Virus record (IMG/VR): IMGVR_UViG_2671180921_000028
Location: 1 to 5,558 of that record
Strand: one strand, 5' to 3'
Origin: a virus
Taxonomy: Duplodnaviria > Heunggongvirae > Uroviricota > Caudoviricetes
DNA: 5,558 nucleotides
Positions 1 to 5,558 of the stretch are shown piece after piece (position 1 is the stretch's first letter; every line of letters starts with the position of its first letter). The notes under the pieces were generated by a model that did no database searches, had not been told where the DNA came from, and worked only from the letters and a program-made list of their open reading frames with translations. The position numbers and the translations under genes are program-made.

Positions 1-489
1 ATGAAACAAATGTCACTAATTGAGATGGATGGTTTTCTGAAAGGTAAATGCATCCCACGAGATTTAAAGGTTAACGAAACAAACGCTGAATATCTGGTGC
101 GTAAATTTGCTGAAGCGGAGGCCAAGATTTCGGCTCTGTCCGAAGACCACCAGAAAGCGATTGAGTCAATTAAGCAGGCTGATTCGGCTGTTAAGTTGGC
201 ACACGAGAAGTTTTCAGCGCTGGCGGCGGAGAATGCTGGGCTGAAACACGCAATGGCTGTAACCCTTGAGCATGTGTCGGTCACGGATGCAGGGCAGGCA
301 GGAGTTGCTGCAATGATTATCAATGATGCCCTGTACCACAGCGAAACCCCAGCCACCGACGCTTTCCTGGCTGAAGTGCGTGCGCAGGGGGTGGAGATGA
401 TGCGCGAACATCCATCAATCAAACTTTGCTCTTTGACGCACATATGTGACGAGTTCGCCGCCCAGCTTCGCAAAGGAGGCAACCAGTGA
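1..489 (+). CDS. Hypothetical prophage early-region protein, coiled-coil rich; may be 5'-truncated by the window edge
   Basis: 162-aa ORF from the track. Its stop TGA (487-489) overlaps the GTG start of the next ORF (GTGA), and the downstream RBS GGAGG lies inside its 3' end. No family recognised. Confidence 0.5.
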   Translation: MKQMSLIEMDGFLKGKCIPRDLKVNETNAEYLVRKFAEAEAKISALSEDHQKAIESIKQADSAVKLAHEKFSALAAENAGLKHAMAVTLEHVSVTDAGQAGVAAMIINDALYHSETPATDAFLAEVRAQGVEMMREHPSIKLCSLTHICDEFAAQLRKGGNQ

Positions 490-761
490 GTGAGTCAAAA
501 TGCCAAATTAATGGCAATAAGATAGAACCGTGCGCGGCGTTGACGCAATCCTTGGAGCATGACGCTGAATACACGACGCGAAAAGGTCTGCTGAAATACA
601 AAATCTATAACCATGCATTAATTCATTCACAAGACCTGATCATGCTGCGATCTGGTGAATTTTCTAAATCGCCGATTCGAGTTTCATTTTGCCCGTTCTG
701 TGGTGAAAGTCTGAAAACGTGGGAAGCGGAGGCAACCAGTGAGTGGAAAAAGAATGACTAA
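486..761 (+). CDS. Small Cys4 (zinc-ribbon-like) hypothetical protein
   Basis: 91-aa ORF with GTG start at 486 preceded by GGAGG (475-479, spacing 6). Four Cys arranged C-x9-C ... C-x2-C (CPFCGE). No earlier in-frame ATG. Confidence 0.5.
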   Translation: MSESKCQINGNKIEPCAALTQSLEHDAEYTTRKGLLKYKIYNHALIHSQDLIMLRSGEFSKSPIRVSFCPFCGESLKTWEAEATSEWKKND

Positions 762-963
762 CAGGGAGCTTGTCGATGCCGCGATTAAGCTTGCTGGTGA
801 TTTTTATTCAATGATGGGGTACGCGCATCGCCCTGGATTCAAATATTGGGAATCACCGCATCCGCAAGAGCAACTGGTATTTCAAATGGCCTGCCGTGCT
901 TTTGAGGTTATTCGCGGTTCTGATGTGATGGACGCCGTTGCCGACTTGGAGGATGAAGAGTGA
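739..963 (+). CDS. Small acidic hypothetical phage protein
   Basis: 74-aa ORF with GTG start at 739 preceded by GGAGG (728-732) within the same 18-bp junction sequence as at 475-492. Alternative ATG at 754 has a weaker RBS. Stop TGA 961-963 overlaps the next GTG start. Confidence 0.45.
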   Translation: MSGKRMTNRELVDAAIKLAGDFYSMMGYAHRPGFKYWESPHPQEQLVFQMACRAFEVIRGSDVMDAVADLEDEE

Positions 964-1391
964 ACAAGATTGACTATCAGGCACTGCGTGAGGCGGCAGT
1001 AGCAATTGAAACAGTAGCAATTGAAACAGTAGCAACACCTCAAAAATTGCTGGCATTTCGTATGAAAGTCACACCTCAGGTTGTGCTGGCTCTACTGGAT
1101 GAACGGGAAAGAAACCAGCAATACATCAAACGACGCGACCAGGAGAACGAGGAGATTGCGCTTACGGTTGGGAAGCTGCGTGTTGAGCTTGAGGCAGAAA
1201 AACAGCGGGCAAAGGATCTATTTATGGAAAATGCTCGGCTTAAGTCAGGTGTAGCCGGTCTGATACACCTCGGTATTCGATATGCAGATGTTGAGGTCAT
1301 GAGAATTGCTGGAGATGCCCAGCTTTCTACCCCATTCACTGACAGCATCATAAACAGCATTGCAACAGGCATTCGCATCAAAGGAGAGTGA
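960..1391 (+). CDS. Ead/Ea22-like coiled-coil protein (putative)
   Basis: 143-aa ORF with GTG start overlapping the upstream stop. N-terminal DYQALREAA motif and a central charged coiled-coil (LRVELEAEKQRAKDL) resemble the lambdoid Ea22-like family as recalled from memory. Contains the in-frame tandem repeat. Confidence 0.45.
   Translation: MNKIDYQALREAAVAIETVAIETVATPQKLLAFRMKVTPQVVLALLDERERNQQYIKRRDQENEEIALTVGKLRVELEAEKQRAKDLFMENARLKSGVAGLIHLGIRYADVEVMRIAGDAQLSTPFTDSIINSIATGIRIKGE
998..1038 (+). repeat. In-frame 15-bp tandem repeat (cagtagcaattgaaa x2 plus an 11-nt partial copy) encoding VAIET-VAIET-VAT
   Basis: Two exact 15-nt units at 998-1012 and 1013-1027, then a partial unit at 1028-1038, all inside the 960-1391 CDS. 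Confidence 0.85.
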
Positions 1392-1392
1392 G

Positions 1393-2148
1393 ATGATTCA
1401 CTATCACGGTGGGCCTATTACTCCTGATACGTGCGCAATGAGAGCATGGAAAGGGCGACATGCGTTTATCAGTTTTGCGCATTCAGGCCAGATCAATCTC
1501 GCGGCTGAATACTGTCAGTCGTTCGCGCTGGACAACGGTGCATTCACCGCCTGGAAAGCAACTGGCAAAAACAAAATCGACTGGAGCGATTACTACGAGT
1601 TTGTTGCTCGCTGGAAGAATCACCCAGGATTCGATTTTGCCATTATCCCGGATGTTATTGATGGCGGAGAGGAGGAAAATGATGCGCTTCTGAATGAGTG
1701 GCCTCACGGAAAACTAGTTGGCGTTCCAGTGTGGCACATGAATGAAAGTGACGAGCGATTTATTCATTTGTGCAATGAGTTTCCGCGAGTGGCTATCGGT
1801 AGTTGTGGCGACTATGACGTAAAGCGCCCAACTCTTGCGGTAGCCAGAATGAAAGACCTGATTCGTCACATTGTTGATGAGCATGGTCAGCCGGTTACGA
1901 AACTACATGGATTGCGCATGTTAAATCCGCTGATATTCACAAAATTACCCTTAGCCAGCGCAGATAGTACGAACGTCGCTCGAAACATCGGTATTGATAA
2001 AGCCTGGTCTGGGGCTTGTGCACCTGCAAGTAAAGAGACACGCGCAGCATTAATGGTAGAACGGATTGAGGCACACAATAGCCCTGGTTCTCTTGCGTAT
2101 TGTGAACAACGCGACCGCTTTGAAATGCAATTGCAACTGGCAGTTTAA
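1393..2148 (+). CDS. tRNA-guanine transglycosylase (TGT)-fold protein, DpdA-like putative DNA 7-deazaguanine transglycosylase
   Basis: ATG at 1393 with AAGGAG (1381-1386, spacing 6), immediately after the upstream stop (1389-1391); preferred over the TTG at 1360. Four motifs match bacterial TGT in the same order: LDNGAF (D47) vs TDSGGFQ, FAIIPD (D87) vs IVMIFDE, AIGSCGD vs YAVGGLA, and ADSTNVARNIG (D191) vs FDCVMPTRNARNG. The C-terminal CxCxxC...H zinc subdomain is absent. Alignment done by eye from memory. Confidence 0.5.
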   Translation: MIHYHGGPITPDTCAMRAWKGRHAFISFAHSGQINLAAEYCQSFALDNGAFTAWKATGKNKIDWSDYYEFVARWKNHPGFDFAIIPDVIDGGEEENDALLNEWPHGKLVGVPVWHMNESDERFIHLCNEFPRVAIGSCGDYDVKRPTLAVARMKDLIRHIVDEHGQPVTKLHGLRMLNPLIFTKLPLASADSTNVARNIGIDKAWSGACAPASKETRAALMVERIEAHNSPGSLAYCEQRDRFEMQLQLAV

Positions 2149-2158
2149 GGACTAACAA

Positions 2159-2722
2159 ATGACCACTATAACCAAAGAGCGACTACTGACAATCAAGCAG
2201 TGGCGCGAAACATACGGACCTGGTAGCAACGTTGTACTGCCAGCAGAAGAAGCGGAAGAACTGGCACGGATTGCGTTAGCCTCACTGGAAGTCGAGCCTG
2301 TAAGCCAAACTTACAACTTGCCAGAATTAATCGAAGGCATGGAAGTTTCCATTGATGTAAGTACTTGTGATGCTGATTTAGGTAATCGCTATTTCGGCAC
2401 CGTCACCGAGGCGTTAGAACTTGATACTGCCAAGAATGGTTACATCCTCCTGGTTCAGGACGCAGAGCCAAACTTCGATATAAATGGCAACTCTCCGGTA
2501 ACTCCGGATGGTTGGATAAGCTGTAGTGAGCGAATGCCAAACGATAAACAGTATGTTTGGTGTTGGGGGAAGTCTTACGGCTGGACTGAGTGCGATACCT
2601 TCGAAGGGTATTACGATTGGTCGAGAAACAAATGGTGGGCAATTACTGACGATGGGGAAGAACCGGCATCGAAAGTAACCCACTGGATGACGCTACCGGA
2701 GCCACCGCAGGAGGTGAAGTGA
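2159..2722 (+). CDS. DUF551-domain phage protein
   Basis: 187-aa ORF with ATG 2159 and AAGGA 7 nt upstream. The Trp-rich C-terminus (WISCSERMP ... KVTHWMTLPEPP) is typical of DUF551 proteins in lambdoid early regions. Confidence 0.65.
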   Translation: MTTITKERLLTIKQWRETYGPGSNVVLPAEEAEELARIALASLEVEPVSQTYNLPELIEGMEVSIDVSTCDADLGNRYFGTVTEALELDTAKNGYILLVQDAEPNFDINGNSPVTPDGWISCSERMPNDKQYVWCWGKSYGWTECDTFEGYYDWSRNKWWAITDDGEEPASKVTHWMTLPEPPQEVK

Positions 2723-3006
2723 TGGACTCCTTCGCGAAATATACGATTATTGACTGGGTAGCCTTCCTTCAGTTTTTGCTCATCTGGTTTTATATGGCTT
2801 ACAGGAGTGGACAGTGGATTGTCAGTGTAGCCTGTAGCAAGGGATGGCGTTGGTGGAACCGAAAGAATAAAAAAGCGCTGGCCTTGGATTCGTTTTACGA
2901 AGCATTCAATCTTAACAGCCTTCAGCCTGGTTCTGTCGTTGTAGTCACCACTCAAAGCGGCATGACGATACAAATTCACAAGCCAAAGGAGGAAGGTCGT
3001 GGCTAA
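2722..3006 (+). CDS. Small putative single-pass membrane protein
   Basis: ATG 2722 (or GTG 2719) with GGAGG at 2710-2714, overlapping the upstream stop (2720-2722). Hydrophobic N-terminal segment YTIIDWVAFLQFLLIWFYMAY followed by a basic stretch. Confidence 0.5.
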   Translation: MDSFAKYTIIDWVAFLQFLLIWFYMAYRSGQWIVSVACSKGWRWWNRKNKKALALDSFYEAFNLNSLQPGSVVVVTTQSGMTIQIHKPKEEGRG

Positions 3007-3283
3007 CCTGCAACTTGCCGTTAAAGGTGAATACTTCGATGCCATGATTCGAGGAGAGAAAACGGAAGAGTATCGCCTGTGTAATGACTACTGGAATAAG
3101 CGAATTATGTTCCGGGAGTATGACCGCCTGATTATCACAAAGGGATATCCTAAGCGTGACGATTCCAGCCGCAGAATTGACGTTCCGTATGGCGGATATG
3201 AAATCAAGACAATCACACACCCGCACTTCGGCGATAAACCGGTAAAGGTTTACGCGATAAAGGTAAATATCGGCAATGAATAA
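2999..3283 (+). CDS. ASCH-like (PUA-fold, DUF3850/YqfB-like) protein
   Basis: GTG start 2999 with AAGGAGG (2986-2992), overlapping the upstream stop. N-terminal KGEYFDAMIRGEKTEEYR matches the ASCH signature pattern (F..a..G.KT.e.R) recalled from YqfB and DUF3850 proteins. Confidence 0.5.
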   Translation: MANLQLAVKGEYFDAMIRGEKTEEYRLCNDYWNKRIMFREYDRLIITKGYPKRDDSSRRIDVPYGGYEIKTITHPHFGDKPVKVYAIKVNIGNE

Positions 3284-3287
3284 CAAT

Positions 3288-3342
3288 CCTCGCACTCGCG
3301 GGGATTTCTTTTATCTGAACTCGCTACGGCGAGTTTTGTTTT
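3288..3342 (+). terminator. Tandem rho-independent terminator hairpins closing the accessory operon
   Basis: Hairpin 1: CCTCGC-actc-GCGGGG (3288-3303, one G-U pair) followed by ATTTCTTTT. Hairpin 2: AACTCGC-tacg-GCGAGTT (3318-3335) followed by TTTGTTTT. Confidence 0.6.
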
Positions 3343-3355
3343 ATGGAGATGATAA

Positions 3356-3523
3356 ATGCACTTCCGAGTCACAGGTGAATGGAATGGAGAACCATTCAAC
3401 AGAGTTATCGAAGCAGAGGACATCAACGACTGCTATGACCACTGGATGCTATGGGCGCAGATAGCACATGCAGACATAACCAATATTCGAATTGAAGAAC
3501 TGAAAGAACACCAAGCCGCCTGA
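3356..3523 (+). CDS. Unlisted small ORF (55 aa, MHFRVTGEWNGEPFNRVIEAEDINDCYDHWMLWAQIAHADITNIRIEELKEHQAA)
   Basis: ATG 3356 with GGAG (3345-3348, spacing 7), stop TGA 3521-3523. Below the track length cut-off. Sits between the terminators and torI. No family recognised. Confidence 0.4.
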   Translation: MHFRVTGEWNGEPFNRVIEAEDINDCYDHWMLWAQIAHADITNIRIEELKEHQAA

Positions 3524-3535
3524 TGGTGGTTTTTT
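3516..3535 (+). terminator. Weak putative intrinsic terminator
   Basis: CCGCC-tgat-GGTGG (5 bp stem with one G-U pair) followed by TTTTTTATT. Overlaps the stop codon of the 55-aa ORF. Confidence 0.3.
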
Positions 3536-3545
3536 ATTGCCTGAT

Positions 3546-3561
3546 TTGCAGGTTCGATTCC
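3546..3561 (+). other. tRNA-like fragment (T-stem/T-loop, TTGCAGGTTCGATTCC) just upstream of torI
   Basis: Contains the canonical T-arm motif GGTTCGATTCC. From memory it is identical to the argW segment immediately 5' of the att core. No acceptor or anticodon arms are present, so it is not a tRNA gene. Confidence 0.5.
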
Positions 3562-3580
3562 CTATTCGGAGATAGCACTC

Positions 3581-3781
3581 ATGCAACACGAACTACAGCC
3601 TGATTCACTGGTTGATTTGAAATTCATCATGGCCGATACTGGCTTCGGTAAAACCTTCATCTATGACCGGATTAAGTCCGGGGACCTGCCTAAAGCCAAA
3701 GTTATCCACGGGCGAGCAAGATGGTTATATCGTGACCATTGTGAATTCAAAAATAAGCTCTTAAGCCGCGCCAATGGGTAA
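3581..3781 (+). CDS. torI: TorI, excisionase-like recombination directionality factor and Tor response-regulator inhibitor
   Basis: 66-aa ORF recognised as E. coli TorI/AlpA-Xis-type winged-helix protein, with GGAG RBS at 3568-3571. Lies at the att-proximal end of the prophage, as in KplE1. Confidence 0.85.
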   Translation: MQHELQPDSLVDLKFIMADTGFGKTFIYDRIKSGDLPKAKVIHGRARWLYRDHCEFKNKLLSRANG

Positions 3782-3797
3782 AATAGCGGGTAAAATA
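3776..3797 (+). repeat. Direct repeat GGGTAAAATA-gc-GGGTAAAATA overlapping the torI stop codon
   Basis: Two exact 10-nt copies at 3776-3785 and 3788-3797, followed by an A/T-rich tract. Candidate protein-binding sites in the attR arm. Confidence 0.6.
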
Positions 3798-3853
3798 TTT
3801 TTCACATCTAAAAAACACCATTCCAATCAATCCCCTGCCGCTTCAAGTAGATG

Positions 3854-3869
3854 CCTGCAGGGGACACCA
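3854..3869 (+). other. attR core: 16-nt copy of the 3' end of tRNA-Arg(CCU) argW (CCTGCAGGGGACACCA)
   Basis: Matches the 3' T-stem, acceptor 3' strand, discriminator and CCA of argW as recalled. Upstream sequence diverges from the tRNA. Flanked by the inverted repeat CCCCTGC (3832-3838) / GCAGGGG (3857-3863). Confidence 0.7.
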
Positions 3870-4257
3870 GATACCCTTCAAACGAAATCTACCTTCACCC
3901 CGTAAAAGATGGGTTTGGCAGCACACTTGCCTTATATCTACTCATTTTTACTGCAACAGGTTGAAATCTCAGCACTGTCAGAAAGCGCTGATGACTAAAC
4001 AGCCCTGGGCCGGGCGATGTAACCATCACACAGAATCCTGATAGCGAAATATGGCGTGACTCGATACTTCACTCCGCAATGCATTCCTTGATGAATTCGC
4101 AGGACCGTGATACACGGGACAGGTCACTGAATGACGACAATGTCCTGGAAATCAGCGAACCGCGCATCTGAAGTACATTTGAGCGACTGTACCAGAACAT
4201 GAATGAGGCGTTTGGATTAGGCGATTATTAGCAGGGCTAAGCATTTTACTATTATTA

Positions 4258-4301
4258 TTTTCCGGTTGAGGGATATAGAGCTATCGACAACAACCGGAAA
4301 A
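4258..4301. repeat. Perfect 11-bp inverted repeat (TTTTCCGGTTG ... CAACCGGAAAA) with a 22-nt loop, just 3' of cscB
   Basis: Arms at 4258-4268 and 4291-4301. Lies 10-50 nt beyond the cscB stop on the minus strand. No clean U-run on either strand, so it is not a canonical intrinsic terminator. Confidence 0.5.
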
Positions 4302-4310
4302 AGTTTACGT

Positions 4311-5558
4311 CTATATTGCTGAAGGTACAGGCGTTTCCATAACTATTTGCTCGCGTTTTTTACTCAAGAAGAAAATGCCAAATAGCAACATCAGGCAGAC
4401 AATACCCGAAATTGCGAAGAAAACTGTCTGGTAGCCTGCGTGGTCAAAGAGTATCCCAGTCGGCGTTGAAAGCAGCACAATCCCAAGCGAACTGGCAATT
4501 TGAAAACCAATCAGAAAGATCGTCGACGACAGGCGCTTATCAAAGTTTGCCACGCTGTATTTGAAGACGGATATGACACAAAGTGGAACCTCAATGGCAT
4601 GTAACAACTTCACTAATGAAATAATCCAGGGGTTAACGAACAGCGCGCAGGAAAGGATACGCAACGCCATAATCACAACTCCGATAAGTAATGCATTTTT
4701 TGGCCCTACCCGATTCACAAAGAAAGGAATAATCGCCATGCACAGCGCTTCGAGTACCACCTGGAATGAGTTGAGATAACCATACAGGCGCGTTCCTACA
4801 TCGTGTGATTCGAATAAACCTGCATAAAAGACAGGAAAAAGTTGTTGATCAAAAATGTTATAGAAAGACCACGTCCCCACAATAAATATGACGAAAACCC
4901 AGAAGTTTCGATCCTTGAAAACTGCGATAAAATCCTCTTTTTTTACCCCTCCCGCATCTGCCGCTACGCACTGGTGATCCTTATCTTTAAAACGCATGTT
5001 GATCATCATAAATACAGCGCCAAATAGCGAGACCAACCAGAAGTTGATATGGGGACTGATACTAAAAAATATGCCGGCAAAGAACGCGCCAATAGCATAG
5101 CCAAAAGATCCCCAGGCGCGCGCTGTTCCATATTCGAAATGAAAATTTCGCGCCATTTTTTCGGTGAAGCTATCAAGCAAACCGCATCCCGCCAGATACC
5201 CCAAGCCAAAAAATAGCGCCCCCAGAATTAGACCTACAGAAAAATTGCTTTGCAGTAACGGTTCATAAACGTAAATCATAAACGGTCCGGTCAAGACCAG
5301 GATGAAACTCATACACCAGATGAGCGGTTTCTTCAGACCGAGTTTATCCTGAACGATGCCGTAGAACATCATAAATAGAATGCTGGTAAACTGGTTGACC
5401 GAATAAAGTGTACCTAATTCCGTCCCTGTCAACCCTAGATGTCCTTTCAGCCAAATAGCGTATAACGACCACCACAGCGACCAGGAAATAAAAAAGAGAA
5501 ATGAGTAACTGGATGCAAAACGATAGTACGCATTTCTGAATGGAATATTCAGTGCCAT
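4311..5558 (-). CDS. cscB: Sucrose:H+ symporter CscB (oligosaccharide:H+ symporter family of MFS)
   Basis: 415-aa ORF with N-terminus MALNIPFRNAYYRFASSYSFLFF, recognised as CscB. Clear LacY-family motifs (DKLGLKK, FEYGTARAWG, YNIFDQQ, NRVGPKNALL, FKYSVANFDKR). Start codon is the last 3 nt of the window; stop TAG at 4311-4313. Confidence 0.9.
   Translation of the reverse strand: MALNIPFRNAYYRFASSYSFLFFISWSLWWSLYAIWLKGHLGLTGTELGTLYSVNQFTSILFMMFYGIVQDKLGLKKPLIWCMSFILVLTGPFMIYVYEPLLQSNFSVGLILGALFFGLGYLAGCGLLDSFTEKMARNFHFEYGTARAWGSFGYAIGAFFAGIFFSISPHINFWLVSLFGAVFMMINMRFKDKDHQCVAADAGGVKKEDFIAVFKDRNFWVFVIFIVGTWSFYNIFDQQLFPVFYAGLFESHDVGTRLYGYLNSFQVVLEALCMAIIPFFVNRVGPKNALLIGVVIMALRILSCALFVNPWIISLVKLLHAIEVPLCVISVFKYSVANFDKRLSSTIFLIGFQIASSLGIVLLSTPTGILFDHAGYQTVFFAISGIVCLMLLFGIFFLSKKREQIVMETPVPSAI

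Follow-up and report, generated by a model that had tools for sequence, protein, structure and literature searches.

Predicted integrase arm-type sites and a core-complementary inverted repeat at the torI end of an argW-associated prophage of the KplE1/HK620/Sf6 family

The stretch of DNA analysed here, referred to as the window, comprises 5,558 nucleotides of a Caudoviricetes record (IMG/VR IMGVR_UViG_2671180921_000028, positions 1 to 5,558), and the features around its phage/host junction are collected in Table 1. The torI gene reads toward a tRNA-derived core and is the last gene of the prophage. Its product is 100% identical to the retrieved E. coli copies, K-12 TorI included, and RefSeq annotates torI on near-identical DNA in thousands of E. 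coli genomes. Between 3500 and 3869 the window shares 97–99% DNA identity with the phages HK620, Sf6, IME10, and Kapi1. This phage homology ends at 3869, the last base of the core, and from about 3850 on the window matches genomes with an unoccupied tRNA-Arg gene, where a tRNA-Arg feature is annotated. The gene cscB occupies 4311–5558 on the minus strand, and the csc sucrose locus is found downstream of the junction. In strains such as E. coli W, this locus has been described as an insertion that separates the variable argW region from dsdX (PMC3032704). The torI gene, the published core at the junction, and the csc flank together indicated that, as judged from its sequence, the window is the torI end (attR) of a prophage integrated in argW and a member of the KplE1/CPS-53/HK620/Sf6 family of recombination modules. 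An earlier note on this DNA had placed its repeats in an attR arm located between torI and the core, and the end of the phage homology, the match to the tRNA-derived core, and the identity of torI all supported that placement.

Table 1. Coordinates of the features at the torI end of the prophage (positions are those of the window).
Feature	Position	Strand	Description
torI, recombination directionality factor (excisionase)	3581–3781	+	66-aa ORF; RefSeq torI annotation on the same DNA
Phage-derived part of attR (P arm and core)	3758–3869	+	Corresponds to the K-12 attR fragment used for in vitro excision
P1, distal arm-type IntS site (predicted)	3776–3785	+	GGGTAAAATA; overlaps the last torI codon and the stop codon
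P2, proximal arm-type IntS site (predicted)	3788–3797	+	GGGTAAAATA; 12 bp from P1
IHF-like site (A6 tract, 3810–3815, and AATCAATCCCCTG, 3825–3837)	3810–3837	+	Consensus match
Inverted repeat, left arm	3831–3838	+	TCCCCTGC; phage DNA; overlaps the 3′ half of the IHF-like site
Core-proximal conserved block	3847–3853	+	GTAGATG; conserved T-GA-G columns immediately left of the core
Core, 3′ end of argW tRNA-Arg and crossover region	3855–3869	+	CTGCAGGGGACACCA; published core; phage att features
Inverted repeat, right arm	3857–3864	+	GCAGGGGA; in the core, at the junction of the argW T-stem and acceptor 3′ strand
Host DNA downstream of argW (argW-csc intergenic)	3870–4310		Host-genome matches

The core of KplE1/CPS-53 was published as the 16-nt sequence CTGCAGGGGACACCAT (PMC2951348), and the features annotated as “attP core” in HK620 and Sf6 map onto 3855–3870 of the window. 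The 3′ end of argW, CTGCAGGGGACACCA with an optional final T, was looked for at the phage/host junction and was found there. The flank past the core is the csc sucrose locus here and dsdC in K-12, and therefore the 16th base of the core is G and not T. The conserved block next to the core reads TTCGATG in other genera and resembles the argW T-loop (TTCGATT), and it is a candidate core-type (C) contact of IntS. The base that separates this block from the core, position 3854, is a C (GATGCCTGCAGG), the same as in the tRNA; it is a T in nearly all other prophages and phages, and the C is common to just one other distinct arm sequence (L067). This C may have arisen by simple mutation, or it may be a trace that strand exchange or mismatch repair left behind where the crossover region has its left border.

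The 10-mer GGGTAAAATA is present twice in a 12-bp register, and the torI stop codon (TAA, 3779–3781) falls within the first copy, both as the earlier note had described; the 3′ end of the gene reads GCC AAT GGG TAA. Exact tandem repeats of at least 10 nt at a spacing of 10–15 nt were counted in the window. Two were found, the other one being an unrelated 15-nt coding repeat near position 1000, while dinucleotide shuffles gave a mean of 0.02 and none of 300 reached two, which indicates that the tandem 10-mer is beyond chance. In the GenBank record of HK620, a repeat_region named “attP” maps to 3775–3797 of the window, and more attP repeats are annotated just upstream of int. When 1570 bp of HK620 were scanned for GGGTAAAA allowing up to one mismatch, 10 matches were obtained against 1.8 expected, a count reached by none of 200 shuffles. 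Six of these matches form two clusters. The two copies in the P arm are both direct and are located after hkaC/torI, and the four in the P′ arm, two direct and two inverted, end at the start codon of int. The same layout, with the motif on both arms, was observed in a Pantoea-clade locus and in another divergent phage-form locus (L223/L227 and L125). The arm-type sites of IntS published for the P′ arm all carry TAAA, and one of them, P′1, overlaps the −10 box (TAaAAa) of the intS promoter (PMC2951348). The P′ copies of GGGTAAAA in HK620 agree with that description, which deals with the P′ sites only and not with the torI-side pair (PMC2951348).

The integrase gene is located outside the window, and its domains were analysed in the IntS homologue of a phage-form locus (L043). 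This protein includes Arm-DNA-bind_3 (E=1.5e-25), Phage_int_M, and Phage_integrase, i.e., a heterobivalent architecture. The in vitro excision assays carried out with IntS, TorI, and IHF use a 135-bp K-12 attR and the primer attR-IHF2 (PMC3509656). This primer matches 3758–3777 of the window, and in the K-12 genome the two published primers delimit exactly 135 bp. The substrate begins 18 bp upstream of P1, and the interval 3776–3863, to which the earlier note referred, amounts to approximately the whole of its phage-derived part. Binding by the N-domain of the KplE1 integrase and loss of recombination upon mutation of the site have reportedly been described (Panis, 2007, in JBC, and Panis, 2010, in Virology).

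Loci with TorI relatives were fetched from bacterial contigs, one genome per species, and from IMG/VR. The region from the torI stop codon through the core was represented by 106 distinct sequences, one of which (L050) was a spurious motif match that had no core. Genome-derived loci came from hosts such as Enterobacter, Serratia, Citrobacter, Dryocola, Pantoea, Tatumella, Rouxiella, Edwardsiella, and Arsenophonus. About 100 distinct arms, drawn from roughly a dozen named genera, keep the arrangement GGGTAAA-N5-GGGTAAA at the torI stop codon, and the GGGTAAA of P1 is nearly invariant, with a single exception (L009). The distance to TGCAGGGG is constant across the arms apart from rare 1-nt length changes (L004 and L096), and the DNA in between is heavily diverged despite the preservation of the GGGTAAA blocks.

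An overlapping ORF of 43 aa (3774–3905), which crosses both the torI stop codon and the att core and is the equivalent of hkaB in HK620 and gene 17 in Sf6, was considered as the cause of the indel-free spacing. It was discarded: the reading frame includes stop codons or lacks a start codon in many lineages, codon position 3 is the least variable, and there is no Pfam match. The broken ORF and the lack of a third-position excess indicate that the constraint is on the DNA or RNA itself rather than on a coding sequence, and the ORF of the hkaB/gene 17 type is probably a spurious annotation of the phage records and not a conserved gene. The near-absence of indels fits the fixed geometry of an intasome arm, and the near-invariance of the arm-site pair and of its distance to the core across roughly a dozen named Enterobacterales genera argues that this geometry is strict.

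The motif identity with the P′ sites, the GenBank annotation, and the conservation led us to assign the pair to IntS. The two copies of GGGTAAAATA are almost certainly the already-characterised IntS arm-type sites of attR. Of the proteins that the earlier note had proposed as ligands of this arm, the integrase is supported for the direct repeats, with a motif that is present on both arms of attP, is contained in the excision substrate, and is invariant across genera.

The same note had also suggested binding of the recombination directionality factor (RDF), and the direct repeats could then be TorI sites, at which the excisionase would bend attR or autoregulate its own gene. The GGGTAAAATA copies abut torI at a spacing of 12 bp, and direct repeats with a period of about one helical turn are the typical form of RDF sites (PMC7498355). 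However, the TorI sites have been defined as GTTCG, GATCG, or GTCCG boxes, and all five of them are on attL (PMC2951348), where TorI binds cooperatively (PMC3509656). A search of both strands detected none of these pentamers in 3758–3870. Furthermore, copies of GGGTAAAA in both orientations are found on the P′ arm, at the places reported for the IntS arm-type sites. We therefore regard the identification of the repeats as TorI sites as very improbable, and the suggestion that the RDF binds in this region was abandoned. A role in the control of integrase expression, which had also been raised, did not survive either. The intS promoter is located in attL, at the other end of the prophage (PMC2951348), and consequently the attR arm does not regulate int transcription in the prophage state.

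Between the arm sites and the core there is a plausible IHF-like site. Its AATCAATCCCCTG element matches WATCAANNNNTTR at 12 of 13 positions and an A6 tract is found 10 nt upstream; this is a single match and is not above chance in the window. Nonetheless, the CAA and the central T of the YTR in CAA-N4-YTR are at a fixed position and are among the most conserved columns of the spacer across genera. The name of the primer attR-IHF2 implies that there are IHF sites on attR, and the 2010 Virology paper reportedly describes attR as holding the only functional IHF site of the KplE1 system. The repeats had been listed as possible IHF sites; an IHF-like element does exist in the arm, at 3825–3837, but it is separate from the direct repeats.

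We consider it highly probable that the region is the P arm plus the core of an attR of the KplE1/CPS-53/HK620/Sf6 type in argW, and that the arm sites, the IHF bend, and their function in the intasome are as follows. The N-terminal arm-binding domain of IntS would bind both copies of GGGTAAAATA, and an IHF-type bend at the A-tract and AATCAATCCCCTG, between the arm sites and the core, would let the arm-bound IntS protomers reach CTGCAGGGGACACCA, where the catalytic domains would exchange strands with attL. TorI would act from its sites on attL and not from the attR arm. The arm sites would help assemble the intasome for excision and also, within attP, the one for integration, and they would have no role in the control of int transcription. 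The inverted repeat would be a second feature superimposed on this arrangement, with a right arm that is fixed by the tRNA and a left arm that consists of phage DNA and is still complementary to the right arm in most lineages.

This inverted repeat had been described in the earlier note as a 7-bp element that brackets the start of the core. The element is there, with a length of 8 bp instead of 7, and the stated location holds approximately, with the left arm ending 16 nt before 3855, the right arm inside the core, and a spacer of 18 nt (3839–3856). Five exact 8-bp inverted repeats with spacers of 3–30 nt were found in the window against 2.5 expected, and 14% of the shuffles reached five. Therefore, the inverted repeat on its own, and in the window alone, is not beyond chance, and the support for it comes from its conservation in relatives.

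The hairpin is the predicted local minimum-energy structure in almost every lineage, and in 30 of the 47 lineage representatives the 40 nt upstream show better pairing to the core than their shuffled versions do (p<0.02), among them a clade whose left arm is displaced by about 5 nt. RNAalifold analysis of 26 main-clade sequences gave a 7-pair helix in which two pairs show compensatory double changes; the compensatory changes are C-G to U-A in Edwardsiella phages and G-C to A-U in Rouxiella. The L239/L246 clade has its complementary left arm about 5 nt further left, and pairing persists. The stem of the Pantoea clade contains a bulge and gains a covarying extension, TGGTG/CACCA versus TGGCG/CGCCA. 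The strongest single example comes from an Edwardsiella-type phage in IMG/VR (L114/L115), where a 13-bp perfect inverted repeat (GTTCCCTGCATAC ... GTATGCAGGGAAC) with a 10-nt spacer forms a hairpin that reaches tRNA position 72 and leaves a GCCA tail. Pairing in the fixed register was observed in 73.9% of the cells as opposed to 34–58% when the register was slid. Covariation in the fixed register barely exceeded that of shuffles (27/500), the helix was not recovered when RNAalifold was run on all 47 representatives, and a comparison of the plus and minus duplexes revealed no consistent strand bias in pairing energy. Arsenophonus, L121/L122, and some of the Pantoea clade have a degenerate inverted repeat or none at all.

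We concluded that the inverted repeat is probably a selected element capable of forming a hairpin, which would act either as RNA in the 3′ untranslated region of torI or as DNA in the intasome. A competing explanation, to which we assign a low but appreciable probability, is that the repeat has no function of its own, its left arm being kept as IHF site or spacer and the complementarity being incidental. The count of 8-bp inverted repeats in the window, the failed consensus over all sequences, the weak covariation, and the lineages that have no repeat are all compatible with this explanation. However, IHF requires just CAA-N4-TTR and not the CCCC, and an incidental complementarity accounts poorly for two independent compensatory changes and for an arm that has been displaced and is still complementary.

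If the repeat is selected, it may act as an RNA hairpin in the 3′ untranslated region of torI that has as its 3′ arm the 3′ strand of the tRNA acceptor, no other G+C-rich sequence being constant at the end of the prophage, a possibility that we put forward tentatively. Such a hairpin would, regardless of the DNA beyond the core, define or protect the 3′ end of the torI mRNA, or in the phage state limit read-through into int; this function, too, is proposed with modest expectations. The stable local hairpin in nearly all lineages, the complementarity to the core that is significant in individual lineages, and the compensatory changes in two of them favour it, as do the U·G pairs seen in several lineages, with the U on the left arm. 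The shifted arm of L239/L246 and the covariation in the Pantoea clade fit pairing better than they fit a fixed protein site. In addition, RNA of the K-12 pseudo-tRNA pawZ was detected by SEC-seq and runs with high-molecular-weight complexes, unlike a real tRNA; this detection shows transcription across the core, nothing more. On the other hand, the hairpin has no U-tract, terminator call, or Rfam match, the plus strand has no consistent advantage in pairing energy, and the 111-nt region as a whole is not unusually structured (z = −1.2). As for the U·G pairs, a C-rich left arm would yield an excess of them in any case, C-to-T being the most frequent change.

Other ways in which an RNA structure could act here were discarded. 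The element does not have the form of an intrinsic terminator, in which a loop of 3–8 nt and a directly adjoining U-run are expected, as it has an 18-nt loop and the tail CACCAGAUACCC, which includes no U-tract; a terminator scan of 3300–4320 did not list it, and an Rfam scan of 3300–4300 gave sub-threshold noise only, with no family match. Mimicry of an RNase P substrate or tRNA minihelix was rejected as well: the CCA end is covered in the Pantoea clade and the stem stops short of it elsewhere.

A role at the DNA level, with the left arm as an extra inverted core-type half-site of IntS or as a cruciform-prone element, seems unlikely to us, and so does the corresponding function, in which the left arm helps position IntS beside the IHF bend in attP and attR. 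In its favour, a single protein domain that reads both arms would likewise make the left arm change together with the tRNA-determined right arm, the left arm is positioned between the IHF-like site and the core, the pairing shows no strand bias, and the z-score of the DNA hairpin is −3.7. However, the 18-bp spacer is outside the block of identity between attP and attB and therefore cannot hold the overlap region. Furthermore, arm position and stem continuity differ between clades, something that a fixed protein geometry would not tolerate. Likewise, argW is not known to include a matching inverted copy at that distance, which also counts against a role at the DNA level. A lambda-style C/C′ pair was specifically considered and rejected, with the right arm being tRNA core and the spacer being 18 bp long, against an overlap of 6–8 bp in such a pair, and almost wholly outside the identity block, which starts at 3855. 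A second TCCCCTG, located in the P′ arm of HK620, was considered as a shared protein site and was also rejected, as it is not conserved in other lineages.

Of these possibilities, the most likely reading of the inverted repeat would be that it forms a hairpin where the torI transcript ends. That the left arm has been kept complementary across genera so as to form a hairpin with the acceptor strand of the host tRNA as 3′ arm is a conjecture in which we place limited confidence. If it were true, the hairpin would provide the outward torI transcript with a defined, context-independent 3′ structure, or it would insulate the end of the prophage from transcription. In the literature accessible to us we found no description of an RNA-level element embedded in the att site of a KplE1-type module.

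Several other elements were observed in the window. The sequence TTGCAGGTTCGATTCC, at 3546–3561, is 20–35 nt upstream of the torI start codon and about 290 bp upstream of the core, and it is presumably a 16-nt exact copy of the T-arm of argW. It contains the TorI-box pentamer GTTCG, with the box GGTTCGATTCC at 3550–3560. Of 36 diverse lineages, about 21 conserve a box of the form GGTTCGATT(C/T)C at this position upstream of torI, and two have it in duplicate. From its sequence, the 3546–3561 element could be a TorI operator, by which PtorI would be autoregulated, or a relic of a longer tRNA-derived attP. HK620 has a cII site (TTGC-N6-TTGC) and a promoter, “pI”, annotated at the equivalent of these positions. 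A strong hairpin resembling an intrinsic terminator, AAGCCGCC-TGAT-GGTGGTTT followed by TTTATTGCC, is located at 3513–3532, just upstream of the torI leader, and an equivalent hairpin is present in several other genera. The implication is that torI has a short promoter region of its own. In the host DNA about 50 nt past the core, a weak terminator-like hairpin, GGCAGCACACTTGCC followed by TTATATC, is found at 3917–3931; it may be the native terminator of argW, in which case outward torI transcripts would end there too. An 11-bp perfect inverted repeat, TTTTCCGGTTG (4258–4268) and CAACCGGAAAA (4291–4301), lies just beyond the stop codon of the minus-strand gene cscB (4311) and is likely the hairpin at which cscB transcription ends. 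Finally, an in-frame 15-nt tandem repeat, CAGTAGCAATTGAAA, is repeated 2.6 times at 997–1035 and encodes VAIET-VAIET within a 143-aa ORF (960–1391).

The direct repeats and the overall architecture were already known: the module was mapped experimentally in K-12, and its annotation in HK620 dates from 2001. What the strain carries is an attR that looks intact and belongs to a well-studied module, which helps in the annotation of the prophage boundary and in the prediction of excision. Expression of the RDF has been proposed as the main control point in the KplE1 family (PMC2951348). If the core-complementary sequence were an RNA element that controls TorI, it would bear on the trigger of excision because of this proposed control.

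The window shows no departure from the KplE1/HK620/Sf6 family. The KplE1 (CPS-53) attR and the attP of HK620 and Sf6 (Panis et al., 2007, 2010; Clark et al., 2001) have the same TorI protein, P1–P2 sequence (GGGTAAAATAGCGGGTAAAATA), IHF-like box, inverted repeat, and core, and between 3770 and 3869 the window has only three differences from K-12 (3801, 3839, and 3854). The interior of the prophage has a fuller lambdoid/P22-like gene set, as opposed to the 10-kb KplE1 remnant. With respect to lambda, the inverted repeat resembles sib, where att hairpins act on int and xis transcripts in one DNA configuration only, in being an att hairpin downstream of a recombination gene. The resemblance is an analogy only, with no evidence here of RNase III processing or of a role of the RNA, and unlike in sib both arms remain on the attR side, so that the hairpin is present in the phage and prophage states alike. 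The attP and attR sites of lambda share with this module a heterobivalent integrase, arm-type repeats far from the core (P1 and P2 in lambda), an IHF bend site between the arm and the core (H1/H2 in lambda, predicted here), and an RDF that is required for excision. However, the Xis sites of lambda are on the P arm (attR) and int and xis are adjacent, whereas in the KplE1 family it is the int-proximal arm (attL) that carries the RDF sites, opposite ends of the prophage hold torI and int, and the int promoter is inside attL. The arm sites also differ from those of lambda in number and orientation: there are two plus four in this family, with an inverted pair among them.
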